A stretch of 64,000 nucleotides of DNA, taken from positions 7,442 to 71,441 of the forward strand of contig JBBUJK010000029.1 in NCBI GenBank assembly GCA_038054875.1, given 5' to 3'. Under the pieces are notes generated by a model. It saw only the letters and a list, made by a program, of their open reading frames with translations. It was not told where the DNA came from and ran no database searches. The DNA is from Patescibacteria group bacterium. GTDB taxonomy: Bacteria > Patescibacteriota > Patescibacteriia > 2-12-FULL-57-11. A program made the position numbers and the translations under genes. Below are positions 5,193 to 31,017 of this stretch, piece after piece; the stretch's first letter is position 1; each line of letters begins with the position of its first letter.

Positions 5193-6254
5193 ATGTCTGC
5201 ACCTGCCGTCAACAAAGTCATGGACGCGTTGTTTTCCGCGGCCGTGGCTGCCAAAGCCTCGGACTTGCATCTTGTTGTCGGTCGGCCGCCGACGTTGCGC
5301 ATCGATGGCGCGCTCGTGCCGGTCAAAGGCGGGCTGCCGCTCACGACAAAGCAGGTGAGTGAACTCGTGTATAGCGTGCTCACCAAGGAGCAGATCGCGC
5401 GGTTCGAAAAAGACTTAGAACTCGACGCTGCCTATACCACGGGCGGAGCGCGCTTCCGCATCAACGTCCATCAGGAAAAGAACAACGTCGGCTTGGCCGC
5501 GCGTCTCGTGCCGGTCAAAATTCCGAGCATCGCCGACCTGGCGCTGCCGCAAGCCGTCGCCGATCTCACCACGCTGCCCCACGGGCTCATTCTTGTGACC
5601 GGCCCCACGGGCTGCGGAAAATCAACGACGCTCGCCACCCTCTTGAACCTCATCAATGATCGCACCGCGGCGAACATCATCACGCTGGAGGATCCCATCG
5701 AGTTCCTCTTCCCGCAAGGCAAGGCGCTCATCCGCCAGCGCCAGCTCGGCGAGGACATGCGCACCTTCGCCGATGGTTTGAAGCATCTGCTGCGCCAGGA
5801 CCCGGACATCATCATGGTCGGTGAAATGCGGGACCTGGAGACGATCGCGACGACGCTCACCCTCGCCGAAACCGGCCACCTCGTCTTCGCCACGCTGCAC
5901 ACCTACAGCGCATCGACGACGATCGAGCGCATCATCGACGCATTTCCGCCATACCAGCAGAACCAAATTCGCGTGCAGCTCGCCTCGGTGCTGCGTGCCG
6001 TCGTCACCCAGCAGCTTCTGCCCAAGCGCGGCAGCGGTCGCATTGCGGTGCGCGAAGTGATGTTTAATGTCTCCGCCGTTTCAAACTTGATTCGTGAAGG
6101 AAAATCCGCGCAGATGGAGACGGTGCTCCAGACTTCCAGCAAGTACGGGATGTACACGTTGGCGCAGGATGCCAAGCGCCTCGTGGCCGAAGGACTCATC
6201 GACGCCAAAGACGCGCAGACACTCGTCATCCGCCCCCGCGAGCGCATCGTGTAA
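5193..6254 (+). CDS. pilT: type IV pilus retraction ATPase PilT
   Basis: Walker A GPTGCGKSTT, PilT/PilU family architecture, 353 aa. Strong RBS AAGGAGG. Confidence 0.85.
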   Translation: MSAPAVNKVMDALFSAAVAAKASDLHLVVGRPPTLRIDGALVPVKGGLPLTTKQVSELVYSVLTKEQIARFEKDLELDAAYTTGGARFRINVHQEKNNVGLAARLVPVKIPSIADLALPQAVADLTTLPHGLILVTGPTGCGKSTTLATLLNLINDRTAANIITLEDPIEFLFPQGKALIRQRQLGEDMRTFADGLKHLLRQDPDIIMVGEMRDLETIATTLTLAETGHLVFATLHTYSASTTIERIIDAFPPYQQNQIRVQLASVLRAVVTQQLLPKRGSGRIAVREVMFNVSAVSNLIREGKSAQMETVLQTSSKYGMYTLAQDAKRLVAEGLIDAKDAQTLVIRPRERIV

Positions 6255-27158: not shown

Positions 27159-27164
27159 TTAGTC

Positions 27165-27193
27165 TTGACAAAACCGTTCTTTTCTGCTATATT
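27165..27193 (+). promoter_or_regulatory. consensus promoter TTGACA-N17-TATATT (same family as 20527 and 37195)
   Basis: TTGACAaaaccgttcttttctgcTATATT. Confidence 0.55.
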
Positions 27194-27195
27194 AG

Positions 27196-27345
27196 GCCGT
27201 TGTTCTTTATCATGGTGGTATGTTGAAAGCGGCGTTTTGGGGCTTTTTTGAAGGCCCGAGAATGCCGTTTTTAACAGGTTGGTCCGAACTCGCGCTGGTG
27301 CGCGGGAGAGGGCTTGTCTGGCGGCGGTCGGAAGGTAGGTCAGCA
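27196..27345 (+). ncRNA. conserved 5' leader shared with the 37225-37351 leader (candidate cis-regulatory RNA)
   Basis: Blocks GGCCGTTGT / GCGGCGTTTT-GGGCTTTT-GGAAGGCC / GCCG(C)TTTT-ACAGGT are conserved between the two leaders. Both end in a GC hairpin plus SD. Confidence 0.35.
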
Positions 27346-27993
27346 ATGGCTCATCTCATCGCGGAAGTCTCACTCGGTCAGGTCTCGGAGCTCATCGCCC
27401 GCCTCGGGCGCGCGGGAATGGATCCCGCGCTCCTCAAGAAGGCGCTCGGTGACGACGAGTTGGTCGAGCGGATGGTCACTGCGGCCCGCACGGAGTCGCA
27501 GGACACCCCCACCCCGACGTCCTTCCCCATCTGGAAGACCATCCAGATCGGCGGGAAGACGAAGGACCAGCTCATCGCCGAGATCGAGGCGAAGGGCATG
27601 AAGATCGGCGACTACGCGCAGAGCATGCTGGCGAAGGAGGCGTTCACGACGCTTCCTAAGCCGTGCGAGCTCACCCTCGTCCGTCCCACGGTCGCGGAGC
27701 TCGGCTTCAAGAAGGGCGCGGTCACGAAGAACATCTGGAAGCGCGCCCAGGACCTGGGCCTCTCGCTCTGCCCAGCCGAAGTCGGTCCGCACCTGCGGCT
27801 CGTCGACGCCGACCAGGCGAGCGGCGACTACTACTGGATCGGCATGGAGCCGATCACTGGCGCCGGCGTCTACCCGGACGTGTTCATGGTCGGGCGCGGC
27901 GACTGCGGGCGCTGGCTGTTCAGCAGCGGTGCCTGGCCGGGCGATCACTGGTTTCCCGAGTTTCGGCTGGTGTTCGTCGCTCCGGGCAAGTAG
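27346..27993 (+). CDS. DGR target (variable) protein; C-terminal variable region ends ...EFRLVFVAPGK
   Basis: The 3' 135 nt (VR) matches the downstream TR, differing only where TR has adenine. The C-terminal FRLV motif is typical of C-type-lectin-fold DGR targets. The N-terminal 45 aa are paralogous to the gene at 37352. Confidence 0.7.
   Translation: MAHLIAEVSLGQVSELIARLGRAGMDPALLKKALGDDELVERMVTAARTESQDTPTPTSFPIWKTIQIGGKTKDQLIAEIEAKGMKIGDYAQSMLAKEAFTTLPKPCELTLVRPTVAELGFKKGAVTKNIWKRAQDLGLSLCPAEVGPHLRLVDADQASGDYYWIGMEPITGAGVYPDVFMVGRGDCGRWLFSSGAWPGDHWFPEFRLVFVAPGK
27857..27990 (+). repeat. DGR variable region (VR)
   Basis: About 134 bp aligned to TR 28350-28483. About 21 mismatches, nearly all at TR adenines (A to G/T). 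Confidence 0.8.
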
Positions 27994-27997
27994 TGGT

Positions 27998-28048
27998 CCT
28001 TGGCACGTGGTCCCTTGGTCGATGAGACCTTGGAACCCTTGCCCTTGG
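27998..28048 (+). repeat. array of five CCTTGG direct repeats immediately 3' of VR
   Basis: CCTTGG at 27998, 28013, 28028, 28043 (plus CCCTTG at 28036), spaced 15 nt. This is the position where DGR IMH/cis elements usually lie. Confidence 0.5.
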
Positions 28049-28349
28049 ACCGATCGGCGTCACCTCCATCACTCGTTCGCGAGTGGTGTCGAGGTGGCGC
28101 CGCACTTTTTTTATCCTGATATACTGGTGTCGGTAGTAGGCGAATACGCGGGAGATCACGGTTTCCCGCTGCCGAATCCGTTTCGCACGCGTCCAGAGTC
28201 CGTCGGATCACGGTTCGCCGGAGCGTGGCTCGTGATGAATCAAAAAATGAAGATACTTGGTGTGCGCGCCTAGGCCATTCTGATGGCGAATACGATTCAG
28301 CCCGGAGAGTACTCAATGGGCAGTGTTCCGGACGGACGCGCGCACGTCA

Positions 28350-28483
28350 CCGACGCCGACGACTACCCGAACGTGTTCAAGGTCGAGCACGACGACAACG
28401 GGCGCTGGCTGAACAGCAACGATGCCAAGCCGGACGATCACTGGAATCCCGAGAATCAGCTGGTGTTCGTCGCTCCGGGCAAC
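28350..28483 (+). repeat. DGR template region (TR)
   Basis: Adenine-rich (many AAC codons in the VR frame) homolog of VR. The listed ORF 28283..28552 is this TR, not a gene. Confidence 0.8.
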
Positions 28484-28488
28484 TCTCT

Positions 28489-28914
28489 TCATTTCTCCCC
28501 GTTTGCCCTGCGCGAAGCGCTGGGTGTCGGGGAGTTTTGTTTGACGAGCTGACCATGCCAACCGCCGAGCATCCTGCCGACCTCGTCGACGCGCTGCGAA
28601 ATGGCGATATACTTCTTGTTGTCGAGCGATTTCGTTTCCCAGAGCACGAGAAGCAAGATTTTCACCGTGTCGAGTTTCCGGACGGCGTCGCGGACCGCCG
28701 GAATCTTTTCCTGCCGTGGCGTGAAGACGGCGGCAACGATCGCCTCGATCGTCTCGATGAAGAGAAGATCAACGCGTTGACCGAGCGTATGTCTATGGAT
28801 TTTCGGAATCGTTTCGTAGTAAGCGAACCAGATCAGATACGCGCTTTTCGTTTTCTGGAGGATCGGCAACAGCGTCGGGGGGGGGGCTTGATGAATCCGT
28901 CGGATGCGCAGCAT
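28489..28914 (-). CDS. avd: DGR accessory variability determinant (Avd)
   Basis: The minus-strand ORF ends ...AISQRVDEVGRMLGGWHGQLVKQN, a helical Avd-type signature. The N-terminal roughly 20 aa may not be translated. Confidence 0.55.
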   Translation of the reverse strand: MLRIRRIHQAPPPTLLPILQKTKSAYLIWFAYYETIPKIHRHTLGQRVDLLFIETIEAIVAAVFTPRQEKIPAVRDAVRKLDTVKILLLVLWETKSLDNKKYIAISQRVDEVGRMLGGWHGQLVKQNSPTPSASRRANGEK

Positions 28915-29896
28915 ATTCCGTCATACCTACGAAGAGATTACTTCTGTCGAGAACCTGCTTGAAGCATGGCTGGAGTTCGTGTGCGGCAAGCGAGGACGGG
29001 CCGACGTCCAGGCGTATGAGCTGGACCTGATGGGCAACCTGTTCGCGCTTCATGAACGGCTTGCCGCGATCACCTACACGCACGGACCATACGAGGCGTT
29101 CACCGTCTCGGATCCGAAAACAAGGAACATCCACAAAGCCACCGTCACGGACCGCGTCCTCCACCGGGCAGTGTACCGGAAGCTGTACCCCTTCTTCGAC
29201 CGCACGTTCATCGCCGACTCCTTCTCCTGCCGGAACGGCAAAGGGACGCACAAGGCGCTCGACCGCTTCCGCACCTTCGCCCGTCGCGTTTCCAGAAATC
29301 ATACGCGGACCGTCTGGGTGCTGAAATGCGACATCCGCAAGTTCTTCGCTTCCATTGATCACGTCGTACTGCTCAGGCTGCTCGACGAACGCATTGAAGA
29401 CAAACGCATCACGTGGTTGCTCGGGCGAATCGTCGGTAGCTTCTCATCGACGCGTTCCGGAGTCGGCCTGCCGCTCGGCAATCTCACCTCGCAACTGTTC
29501 GCCAACATCTACATGAATTCGCTCGACCAATTCGCCAAACATTTTCTCAAAGCAACGCAGTACATCCGCTACGCCGATGACTTTGTCATCCTCTCGCATG
29601 ACCGACCGTATCTTCTCGCGGTGCTCAACCTGACCCGACAGTTCCTTCGCGAACGCCTGCATCTCGAACTTCATCCCCAGAAGGTCACGATCACCACTGT
29701 CGCATCCGGCGTGGATTTTCTGGGATGGGTGCACTTCCCGGATCATCGCGTGCTGCGGAACGCGACAAAGAAACGGCTGATGAGAGCAATCTCTCAACAC
29801 GCAGATCGTGCGACGCATGCCTCCTATCTGGGATTGCTTCGCCACGGAAACGCGCATACTCTTCATCAATGCATCACACGCGCGATTGGGAATTGA
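28904..29896 (+). CDS. DGR reverse transcriptase
   Basis: Has the RT YADD box (YIRYADDFVIL) and the DGR-type [I/L]GxxxSQ motif (LPLGNLTSQ) in place of the retroviral QGxxxSP; the N-terminal segment ITSVENLLEAW is also present. 330 aa. GC lower than the flanks. Confidence 0.9.
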   Translation: MRSIFRHTYEEITSVENLLEAWLEFVCGKRGRADVQAYELDLMGNLFALHERLAAITYTHGPYEAFTVSDPKTRNIHKATVTDRVLHRAVYRKLYPFFDRTFIADSFSCRNGKGTHKALDRFRTFARRVSRNHTRTVWVLKCDIRKFFASIDHVVLLRLLDERIEDKRITWLLGRIVGSFSSTRSGVGLPLGNLTSQLFANIYMNSLDQFAKHFLKATQYIRYADDFVILSHDRPYLLAVLNLTRQFLRERLHLELHPQKVTITTVASGVDFLGWVHFPDHRVLRNATKKRLMRAISQHADRATHASYLGLLRHGNAHTLHQCITRAIGN

Positions 29897-29936
29897 CTTT
29901 TTCACTTCGCGTGCTAACGTCGCCGCGGAGGACAAC

Positions 29937-30980
29937 ATGAACGACGTGACCGCGCAATTCGGCACGACGGACGGCAGGTTCGCCGCCCGCTTACCGGACA
30001 TACTCCGGGAGGTCTGCGCCGCGACCGGTTTTGAGCCGGGGGAGGAGATCTGGCGGGGACGGGTCGTGGCTGCAGAGAAGGTGGCCACGCAGATCGTCTC
30101 TGGGACATGGCAGGGGAAGCCCGCGGCGTTGAAGCTGCAAGGAATCCCGTTGCAGTTTGAAGAGGCGGAGTTGATCCGTCGCTTCACCATCATGAACGCG
30201 TCGGAGCGCATCCGCGCGCCACAGGTCTACCAACACGAACCGTGGGACGCCTCCCGCGGGTACGGTTGGACGATCATGGAGCTCGTCCAGATGCGACTCC
30301 CAATCTACAGCCCGCCGGACGCGCCGGAGCGGGCCCGTCGTCGGTTCGCGGATTTCTACGTGGAATTCCACGGCAAGACGGCCCAGCATCCATTCTTCCC
30401 GAACGAGGAGCCGATGCTCGACACGCCGGCGTTCCTGGAGAAGCGCCTCCTGACCTGGCTCGACATCAACGCGACGGCGCCGGAGCACAACCGCATGCTC
30501 GTCGGCGAACAGCGGGCGCTCGTTGCCGCATACAAGTTGCAGATTGCTGCGCGCGGTCCCGAGCTGCCGATGATTTTCACGCATGGCCATCTTGGCCCGC
30601 GCGACATCGTCTGCGAGGGTATTGGAAAGTACGTTCTGTTCGGCCATGCCTTCTGGGGTTGGCGGCCGCTGTGGTATGACCTGGCGTTCAATGTCTGGAT
30701 CAACCTGATGGCTGCGGGCGAGCATGCAGTGCCCTCGGATGTCGGGCTCCGACAGATCGTCGAAGACTGGGCGGCGACCTACGCGCAGCTGCCCATGGCG
30801 ATGTCAGACCACCACTTCATCCGGAACTTCCGGTTCATGATGATCGAGCGGTGCATCGGTGCGCTGCTCGTGGACATTCCCGCCGGCGTACGCAGCGCAG
30901 AAGGGGAGCAGGCGCGTTCCGGACACCGCGAGGCAGTGTATGTGCTGGCACGGCGCATGCTCAAAGAACTCGGGGGATGA
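29937..30980 (+). CDS. phosphotransferase-enzyme-family (APH/choline-kinase-like) protein, possibly catalytically altered
   Basis: FTHGHLGPRDIVCE (Brenner-motif region with HGH in place of HGD) and LFGHAFWGWRPLWYDLAF (DFG-like). Start ATG after GGAGGA. Confidence 0.45.
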   Translation: MNDVTAQFGTTDGRFAARLPDILREVCAATGFEPGEEIWRGRVVAAEKVATQIVSGTWQGKPAALKLQGIPLQFEEAELIRRFTIMNASERIRAPQVYQHEPWDASRGYGWTIMELVQMRLPIYSPPDAPERARRRFADFYVEFHGKTAQHPFFPNEEPMLDTPAFLEKRLLTWLDINATAPEHNRMLVGEQRALVAAYKLQIAARGPELPMIFTHGHLGPRDIVCEGIGKYVLFGHAFWGWRPLWYDLAFNVWINLMAAGEHAVPSDVGLRQIVEDWAATYAQLPMAMSDHHFIRNFRFMMIERCIGALLVDIPAGVRSAEGEQARSGHREAVYVLARRMLKELGG

Positions 30981-30988
30981 GACCGCTT

Positions 30989-31017
30989 TGACAAGCGGCT
31001 CTTTTTTTGCTATACTA
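30989..31017 (+). promoter_or_regulatory. terminator hairpin doubling as a TTGACA-N17-TATACT promoter
   Basis: GCCGCTTtgacAAGCGGC hairpin + TCTTTTTTTGC + TATACT. Confidence 0.5.

Follow-up and report, generated by a model that had tools for sequence, protein, structure and literature searches.

The locus at positions 27160–29900 of the window (by which we mean the whole 64-kb stretch of DNA that was analyzed) is very probably a chromosomal, apparently intact diversity-generating retroelement (DGR) of the CPR lineage, with the B3 layout in which a target gene ending in VR is followed by TR, an avd gene on the opposite strand and the RT gene (Table 1). The open reading frames of the cassette are all intact, VR contains no frameshift or stop codon, and the element lies amid the housekeeping genes infB, trxA, trxB and leuS. 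A first-pass annotation had proposed that the DGR is complete (target-VR, TR, Avd and RT), and this was supported on each point examined. It had also called the inverted orientation of Avd unusual, which is true only relative to the Bordetella phage element; the arrangement found here, TR-(avd)-RT with a reverse-strand avd, is architecture B3, to which 90% of the CPR (Patescibacteria) DGRs in Wu et al. 2018 belong (PMC5758913). Since B3 so dominates the CPR DGRs, and since the same order is common to all 29 of the related cassettes that we fetched, an inverted avd is normal for this host group. Related cassettes with RTs 52–72% identical to the one described here are nearly all in Patescibacteria MAGs; the host label here is Patescibacteria as well, and the target protein is identical to one encoded in a Patescibacteria MAG. 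Among the 29 cassettes, the end of TR lies 1–37 nt from the avd stop codon in the 25 with a locatable TR (in one of the remaining four TR and avd overlap, and in the other three TR was not found). The locus shares gene order, strands and host group with the CPR DGRs (B3, PMC5758913; clade 2, PMC8144416), as well as the chromosomal setting and the C-terminal position of VR in the target. Clade 2 targets have no TM segments or known domains (Roux et al. 2021, PMC8144416), the target here is likewise small and free of both, and we find no essential difference between the locus and this class. The downstream open reading frame at 29937–30980 was considered as a further part of the element and rejected; it belongs to no family and has no counterpart beside the other cassettes.

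Table 1. Features of the DGR locus, in window coordinates and in order of position
Feature	Position	Strand	Remarks
Putative sigma-70-type promoter	27165..27193	+	near-consensus TTGACA-17-TGnTATATT, upstream of target gene
Target (variable protein) gene	27346..27993	+	215 aa, VR at C terminus
VR	27854..27989	+	last 45 codons of target; ungapped alignment
Candidate IMH (VR 3' end)	27966..27989	+	identical to TR 3' end; adenine-free except final AA
CTTGG array	27994..28050	+	directly after target stop codon; 15-nt period
GC-rich long hairpin and T run	28055..28111	+	possible target-gene terminator
Extended -10 element TGATATACT	28117..28125	+	putative DGR RNA promoter
Structured RNA leader	28131..28346	+	~215 nt, upstream of TR, five helices
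Leader helix P1	28131-28180	+	covariation model
Leader helix P2	28186-28234	+	covariation model
Leader linker AAAAAATGAAGATACTTGGT	28242-28261	+	
Leader helix P3	28260-28271 with 28334-28345	+	encloses P4 and P5
Leader helix P4	28274-28287	+	
Leader helix P5	28300-28321	+	
TR	28347..28482	+	136 nt; 33 adenines, each in the first or second position of a codon in the VR frame, none in the third
TR 3' flank TCTTCATTT	28486..28494	+	pairs with leader AAATGAAGA (28245-28253)
Stem-loop (28495-28534), then TTTTGTTT (U tract)	28495..28542	+	antisense to last avd codons
avd	28489..28869	-	126 aa from TTG 28869; longest ORF extends to ATG 28914, 141 aa
G10 homopolymer	28877..28886	+	in 34-bp gap between avd and RT starts
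DGR RT	28904..29896	+	330 aa; LPLGNLTSQ, YADD

The relationship between VR and TR is that of a DGR. They are 83% identical and collinear with an offset of 493, and 22 of their 24 mismatches are at TR adenines (12 A to G and 10 A to T). The two exceptions lie at the edges of the repeat, a C to T change at the 5' edge (27858) and a change at the 3' edge (27990), where the homology ends at the stop codon; within 27859–27989 every one of the 22 mismatches is at a TR A. This adenine specificity is highly significant (hypergeometric P = 3.7e-17; A is 25% of TR) and bears out the earlier claim of collinear repeats differing where TR has A, with coordinates that were off by at most 3 nt. The capacity for diversification is 25 variable codons, or about 1e20 possible proteins. 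The 3' ends of VR and TR are identical over 24 nt, and because this stretch is also adenine-free save for its final AA, it is by analogy a candidate IMH. A search of the 64-kb window with this conserved 24-nt end, allowing up to 3 mismatches, found VR and TR only, and so no second VR.

The RT is of the DGR type by both motif and similarity: the DGR motif ([ILV]GxxxSQ) that had been noticed beside the YADD box (YxDD) is confirmed. It matches RVT_1 with an E value of 1.4e-24, and its best relative of solved structure is Brt of the Bordetella phage (8ub7_A; E 3.2e-46, 161 bits), far ahead of every other RT of solved structure, the group II intron RTs included (1e-19, 74 bits). The best NCBIfam model is nevertheless a group II intron RT (150 bits), because NCBIfam has no DGR RT model, and this match is the one point in favor of reading the repeats as an ordinary duplication or gene-conversion tract that lies beside the RT of a group II intron, retron or defence system. 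Those 150 bits are far under the cut-off of that model, 300; the RT scores more than twice as high against Brt as against the group II RTs; Rfam finds no intron or retron RNA family; and an Avd gene adjoins the RT. The adenine-specific mismatches (P = 4e-17) and the similarity to Brt refute this reading, to which we give practically no credence.

The first-pass assignment of the minus-strand reading frame to Avd was upheld by the profile searches. It matches PF22296 (bAvd) with 44.9 bits, above the gathering cut-off of 40, and NF033474 (DivGenRetAVD) with 63.7 bits, which is under the equivalog cut-off of 80 although the match is full length, with profile positions 1–102 aligned to residues 1–104. 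(The sole phmmer match of Avd in the PDB, to TAL effectors, is spurious and due to repeats.) The 11-bp head-to-head overlap of avd and RT is a different matter. It is present at the level of the open reading frames, ATG to ATG, but the real Avd start is probably TTG 28869, which leaves 34 bp to the start of RT, and the overlap an artefact of taking the longest reading frame. With the 126-aa form, which begins at this TTG, the NF033474 alignment starts at residue 1. NCBI annotates 141 aa and other gene callers 126 aa, and the extra 15 codons of the longer form pass through the hypermutable tract (C10 on the avd strand). A consensus scan found no promoter for either avd or RT.

A rival reading takes the overlap as real, with Avd starting at ATG 28914, its N terminus extended by codons that pass through the C10 tract, and the length of the tract acting as a frameshift switch on Avd. 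Poly-G tracts within reading frames are a classic device of translational phase variation; the ATG reading frame is in frame with G10 and is the form that NCBI annotates, and a related population contains all three upstream frames, each with its own start. On the other hand, the Avd profile begins with the TTG form, Pfam coverage begins only at residue 19, and the 126-aa reading frame remains intact with a G9 allele. Moreover, in-frame upstream starts are no commoner than those in the shifted frames: among 25 related loci the avd reading frame is open through the tract in 11, compared with 13 and 11 for the two shifted frames. We consider a true overlap improbable, and translational phase variation of Avd was dropped as the leading idea because the tract-spanning reading frame is no more frequent than expected by chance.

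The tract itself, whichever start is used, is a conspicuous feature. It is the sole simple repeat of its kind in the 64-kb window, and 23 of the 27 such repeats in the 29 cassette loci are at the avd-RT junction, where they are poly-G or (GA)n with the purines always on the RT strand. In one related population, junction alleles of C9 to C13 with identical flanks are present (lengths 9–13), so the junction tract is hypermutable there; in the window's own population, at low coverage, an independent contig has G9 where the window has G10. The G10 tract is a candidate for either a contingency (phase-variation) locus or a polypurine element, and a purine-on-RT-strand repeat could equally well have a polypurine, RBS or H-DNA role. 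The promoter region between the divergent hifA and hifB genes of Haemophilus influenzae contains a (TA)n contingency tract. Both that region and the present one have a hypermutable repeat in a short region between divergent genes, with length alleles that coexist; the repeat here differs in being poly-G or (GA)n and in that its switch function is putative. The regulation of DGR activity is not addressed in the DGR literature that we found.

The RNA around TR was modeled by covariation. Upstream of TR is a structured leader of 57 base pairs, 41 of which show compensatory changes; its paired positions are 96.5% paired, compared with 37–46% when the partners are slid, and none of 500 shuffles reaches the observed values. 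The leader structure is thus supported by covariation. It has a single nhmmer match in the window (28121–28356) and is present in 44 of 80 related loci. No Rfam motif, including RT-1 to RT-19, was found around TR (the window as a whole gave no match that reaches the gathering score, and nothing relevant appeared at E values up to 10 in 27950–28950). Just upstream of the leader, TGATATACT is a putative promoter of the DGR RNA, judged from its resemblance to an extended -10 element; related loci have a -10-like element at the corresponding position, and no consensus -35 element lies ahead of it here.

Downstream of TR two further elements would complete the RNA. [quoted passage not shown] The locus therefore has the Bordetella-type combination of an upstream:downstream duplex and a stem-loop 3' of TR, both of which have been described for CPR DGRs, with the stem-loop just downstream of TR, by Handa et al. 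(bioRxiv 10.1101/2023.10.23.563531). A further duplex, between the 3' end of TR and P5 of the leader (GCCCGGAG with CTCCGGGC), is attributed to chance, as it is not conserved in two related loci (L002 and L003). We found no description of the leader RNA, the CTTGG array or the junction repeat in the DGR literature that we consulted.

The target protein is 215 aa long and not 216 as in the first-pass annotation, which described it as apparently cytoplasmic with a CLec-type C-terminal end. It has no hydrophobic segment, and its predicted fold is an N-terminal helical part followed by a C-type-lectin-like domain. It matches no Pfam or NCBIfam family, its own family has more than 200 members without a Pfam domain, and a profile of that family found no match among PDB sequences at E values up to 1. 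It is probably a small C-type-lectin-like protein of the cytoplasm. The putative promoter ahead of the gene has 11 of 12 hexamer matches plus the TG extension, and would leave the transcript with a 5' UTR some 145 nt long. Past the stop codon, exact CTTGG copies begin at 27999, 28014, 28029 and 28044, with one CTTGC half-copy in addition; per 80 nt after the stop codon, DGR-linked loci contain 1.3 exact CTTGG copies where the background is 0.11, and the repeats are degenerate in AT-rich genomes. A pairing of these repeats with the loop motif of P1 and P2 (CACGG/CAAGG) was rejected because inspection found no covariation. The strong GC hairpin starts 62 nt 3' of the target stop codon, with the CTTGG array in between, and could terminate the target gene, correspond to the GC-rich inverted repeat 3' of the IMH, or both.

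These parts suggest the following mechanism. The element would express a non-coding RNA of its own, about 415 nt long and running from about 28131 to 28542 (putative boundaries). In this RNA the structured leader (215 nt) would come first and TR (136 nt) next, and a short 3' flank would fold back to pair with the leader, so closing TR into a loop; the stem-loop with its U tract would form the end. The RT-Avd complex would bind this RNA, its elements presumably being recognized as in the Bordetella phage, and copy TR into cDNA with misincorporation opposite the 33 TR adenines. The cDNA would then replace VR at the 3' end of the target gene, and 25 codons (about 1e20 variants) on what would be the ligand-binding face of the target would be recoded. 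We infer both that retrohoming is currently active and that the target functions in this way.

It is unlikely, in our judgment, that the element is instead a relic, a complete-looking cassette that no longer retrohomes and whose VR/TR differences are frozen. The search for VR variants found none: the two assemblies that carry the target have identical VRs, and a scan of metagenome contigs for VR alleles with the A positions wild-carded matched nothing but TR, in an independent contig. Decay does occur among relatives, since two related loci (L016 and L038) keep the leader RNA with no detectable RT or avd, one related population mostly has a nonsense SNP in RT, and a related strain (L085) has lost some 140 bp from the 5' end of RT. 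Against this, the RT with its YADD box, Avd, the in-phase TR adenines and all of the RNA helices are intact here, and the body of VR has no mismatch at a position other than A, which speaks against prolonged drift after the most recent homing event.

The comparison with the DGR of Bordetella phage BPP-1 (mtd-avd-TR-brt) is instructive. The two elements have in common the adenine-specific VR/TR pattern, related RTs (161 bits) with the same IGxxxSQ-type motif, an Avd four-helix-bundle protein, a target of CLec type (by predicted fold here), and an RNA with a duplex between the regions upstream and downstream of TR and a stem-loop after TR. Unlike in BPP-1, avd here follows TR in the opposite orientation, the 3' flank is short (about 60 nt) and antisense to avd, and most of the conserved RNA structure is in the five-helix leader of about 215 nt upstream of TR rather than a 140-nt downstream spacer; the Rfam RT-10 motif of the BPP-1 spacer has no match here. 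The present element is also cellular and chromosomal, and its target has no signal or tail-fibre context. A tentative reading, which we hold to be possible but doubtful as a whole, is that the hypermutation machinery is under a hypermutable switch of its own, the junction tract turning Avd/RT on and off, and that, in addition, the RNA scaffold that recruits RT-Avd has moved in this lineage from downstream of TR to a 215-nt upstream leader, which would be a new RNA class absent from Rfam.

The locus is one more example of a well-surveyed class of DGR, and at 2.8 kb with every part intact it is useful as a clean and compact reference for the CPR type. We know of no biochemical study of a CPR-type DGR. 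The covariation model provides exact predicted RNA boundaries for in vitro reconstitution of RT, Avd and RNA, and suggests how the RNA architecture of the Bordetella phage is rearranged when avd is inverted, while the target family is a candidate for finding which intracellular ligand CPR cells diversify against. If the switch reading is true, the length of the tract would alter how far apart or how strong the overlapping divergent promoters are, or would act on the regions where translation starts, and cells would stochastically turn Avd and/or RT, and hence diversification, on and off. Should the junction repeat control Avd/RT, bacteria with reduced genomes could time targeted hypermutation.

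Comparison of the window with itself finds a direct repeat, offset by 493 nt, whose two copies differ at 24 positions when aligned base by base. The first-pass annotation had described these copies as collinear and as differing essentially only where the downstream one has A, and the per-base tally agrees: 22 of the 24 differences are at adenines of the downstream copy (12 A to G and 10 A to T), which has a hypergeometric probability of 3.7e-17 given that 25% of that copy is adenine. The other two are a C to T change at the 5' edge and the first base past the end of the homology, and within 27859–27989 every mismatch is at such an adenine. This is the signature of a diversity-generating retroelement (DGR), in which the upstream copy is the variable repeat (VR) and the downstream copy the template repeat (TR). 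All 33 TR adenines occupy codon positions 1 or 2 of the target-gene frame, and the 25 variable codons correspond to about 1e20 possible proteins. No further VR was found in the 64-kb window. An 89-amino-acid ORF (28283–28552, + strand) reads through the TR and has been annotated as a gene in certain assemblies (loci L083 and L084), but it is most likely spurious.

Features of the DGR and its RNA (window positions)
Feature	Position	Strand	Remark
Target gene	27346–27993	+	ends in VR
VR	27854–27989
TR	28347–28482
Target-gene terminator hairpin	28055–28111	+
Extended -10 element	28117–28125	+	-10-like element at the equivalent position of related loci
Structured leader	28131–28346	+	215 nt, conserved in genomes of 39–67% G+C
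P1, P2			leader hairpins sharing one loop motif, followed by a conserved single-stranded linker
P3			12-bp long-range helix around hairpins P4 and P5, ending one base before TR
Longest avd ORF	28489–28914	-
G10	28877–28886		between avd and RT starts; the window has no other long simple repeat
RT ORF	28904–29896	+	RVT_1 match; YADD present

The reverse transcriptase (RT) gene adjoining the TR is of the DGR type, as had been proposed. Among all solved structures its closest relative is PDB chain 8ub7_A (E 3.2e-46, 161 bits), which tblastn confirmed to be Brt, the RT of Bordetella phage BPP-1, whereas no group II intron RT exceeds 74 bits; in the alignment with Brt, GVGLPLGNLTSQLFANIY lies opposite GVGIPIGSLTSQLFANVY. 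The profile search of the minus-strand ORF likewise upheld its assignment as avd, with Pfam bAvd above its gathering score and a match, under the equivalog cut-off, to the NCBIfam "diversity-generating retroelement protein Avd". The flanking genes are infB, trxA, trxB and leuS, so the element is chromosomal. Just past the RT gene is a 347-amino-acid ORF (29937–30980, + strand) that could be assigned to no Pfam or NCBIfam family and lacks a counterpart beside other cassettes; it contains HGHLGPRD, which may resemble kinase or aminoglycoside-phosphotransferase motifs. Elsewhere in the window, at 54867–55096, three tRNA genes form a tight cluster, Arg(tct)-Arg(cct)-Ile(tat); bacteria seldom use the Ile anticodon TAT.

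The claim of a complete DGR (target with VR, TR, Avd and RT) therefore stands, and this is a true one. The inverted orientation of avd was also read correctly, but it is not unusual; the layout is the known norm for the host group. It is architecture B3, a TR-(avd)-RT order in which avd is encoded on the reverse strand and which makes up 90% of the Patescibacteria (CPR) set of Wu et al. (2018, PMC5758913). Roux et al. (2021, PMC8144416) assign CPR DGRs to their clade 2, where transmembrane or other recognisable domains are typically absent from the targets. We compared 80 of the 350 loci that encode relatives of the target, taken from species-representative genomes. RT and avd are present within 5 kb in 29 of these, and all 29 cassettes have the TR-(avd)-RT order. 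The distance from the 3' end of the TR to the avd stop is 1–37 nt, most often 5 nt, in the 25 cassettes where it could be measured on a located TR; in the remaining four, the TR and avd overlap in one and no TR was found in three. The target gene is upstream on the same strand in most loci and convergent with the cassette in five. In about 40 of the 80 loci (including L005, L006, L019, L021 and L022), neither a TR nor an RT nor avd lies within 5 kb of the target homologue.

The first-pass annotation also had the avd and RT start codons overlapping by 11 bp. The longest avd ORF, beginning at ATG 28914, does run 11 nt into the RT ORF, but the true avd start is probably TTG 28869, which gives a 126-amino-acid protein, and the overlap is probably not real. 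Positions 1–102 of the 104 in the NCBIfam Avd profile align to residues 1–104 of this form, Pfam coverage of the 141-amino-acid form starts only at residue 19, and gene calls in other assemblies make Avd 126 amino acids. The 15 extra codons of the longer form cross a C10 tract, and among 25 related loci the avd ORF is open through the tract to a start codon in 11, compared with 13 and 11 in the two shifted frames, which is no better than chance. With the TTG start, avd and RT thus stand head to head, about 34 bp apart. Depending on the starts chosen, the related loci show anything between a gap of about 30 bp and an apparent overlap of about 40 bp.

The 354-nt stretch from the target stop codon to the TR is more than a featureless spacer. 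The consensus structure of the leader, from an alignment of 15 loci, has 57 base pairs, 41 of them with compensatory double changes; 96.5% of cells are paired, against 37–46% when partners are slid by 1–3 columns, and none of 500 shuffles reached the observed values. The linker AAATGAAGA pairs with TCTTCATTT just 3' of the TR (98.6% paired, 4 of 9 pairs covarying). Twelve nucleotides past the TR is a stem-loop, antisense to the last avd codons and followed by TTTTGTTT, which 18 of the 19 inspected loci share, with differing stem sequences. The U tract points to a discrete DGR RNA transcript and to transcription of the RT gene either separately or by read-through. A leader HMM hits the window once (28121–28356) and also recognises 44 of the 80 loci, including every locus with an avd match and 28 of the 30 with an RT match; Rfam gave no match to the leader/TR region, even with E values of up to 10 admitted.

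For the Bordetella phage, Handa et al. (bioRxiv 10.1101/2023.10.23.563531) showed that RT and Avd are wrapped by the RNA that lies 3' of the TR and that a duplex between upstream and downstream RNA ("cPRT Stop") is essential; for CPR DGRs they report a stem-loop immediately 3' of the TR and an upstream:downstream duplex. The duplex and stem-loop found here agree with that description, and no description of a large upstream leader was found in the DGR literature examined. Because avd on the other strand fills the space downstream of the TR, we infer that the leader assumes the protein-binding roles that the spacer has in the Bordetella phage. Related locus L051 has two leader copies (2269–2490 and 5616–5854) and a second G10 at 2963, and in L061 the leader halves are tandemly duplicated; these loci may have multiple or duplicated DGR RNA genes.

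Directly after the target stop codon is a CTTGG array (27994–28050) of four exact copies (at 27999, 28014, 28029 and 28044) with a 15-nt period, plus a half-copy. Most members of the target family, some of them without a DGR in the vicinity, have comparable arrays behind the stop codon, built of CCTTGG in GC-rich genomes and of CTTTGA or CTTAG where AT predominates. In DGR-linked loci the frequency of exact CTTGG is 1.3 per 80 nt against a background of 0.11, and ACTTGGT is also found inside the invariant linker of the DGR RNA; that the array takes part in recognition of the target site is a guess. Near-consensus promoters almost identical to each other (TTGACA-17-TGCTATAyT, 11/12) are present at 27165–27193 and 30988–31016, the first of which implies a target-gene 5' UTR of about 145 nt; an alternative MGnify call is a 257-amino-acid ORF from 27220.

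All parts of the element are intact and the body of the VR has no non-adenine mismatch, which argues for recent homing. No VR alleles were found in a second assembly of the target or in metagenome contigs scanned with the adenine positions wild-carded. Relatives show DGR decay in several forms. All or part of the leader RNA is kept, with no RT or avd detected, in some loci (L016, L038 and L052), which suggests such decay. In most contigs of an Uhrbacteria population (L086–L110) a G to T SNP at locus position about 604 splits the RT into ORFs of 143 and 192 amino acids, a nonsense change that is common there, and one contig (L100) has an intact 339-amino-acid RT. Finally, a related strain, represented by a contig of coverage 1 from well H32 of the Hainich aquifer (L085, 94% identical to the window), has G6 followed directly by the RT from about codon 42, so that the 5' end of the RT gene is short of about 140 bp.

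The short junction between the avd and RT starts carries a simple repeat in nearly all related cassettes as well, G7–G12 in the 13 closest and (GA)4–15 in a second subgroup, with the purines always on the RT strand. Of 27 such repeats in the 29 cassette loci, the junction, with 1.5% of the sequence, holds 23, and most of the others adjoin additional avd genes or a second copy of the leader. At the junction, G9 is seen in an independent contig of the same aquifer, and another contig ends in the tract; both are of low coverage. Stronger evidence of variation comes from the Uhrbacteria population, sampled many times, where identical flanks enclose C9 in 1 locus, C10 in 10, C11 in 8, C12 in 4 and C13 in 2, with only one to three other SNPs over 1.3 kb; the tract is therefore hypermutable in nature.

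The junction tract may be a regulator of Avd or RT, and our literature search found no paper linking DGRs with such repeats. It could instead be a purine-rich ribosome-binding region for the RT, which suits the (GA)n group, whose RT begins 4–7 nt downstream, but fits the poly-G group poorly; alternatively, it could form a homopurine-homopyrimidine DNA structure or have no function. Along with this candidate regulator, the upstream RNA leader and the CTTGG array are the features of this DGR that merit follow-up.
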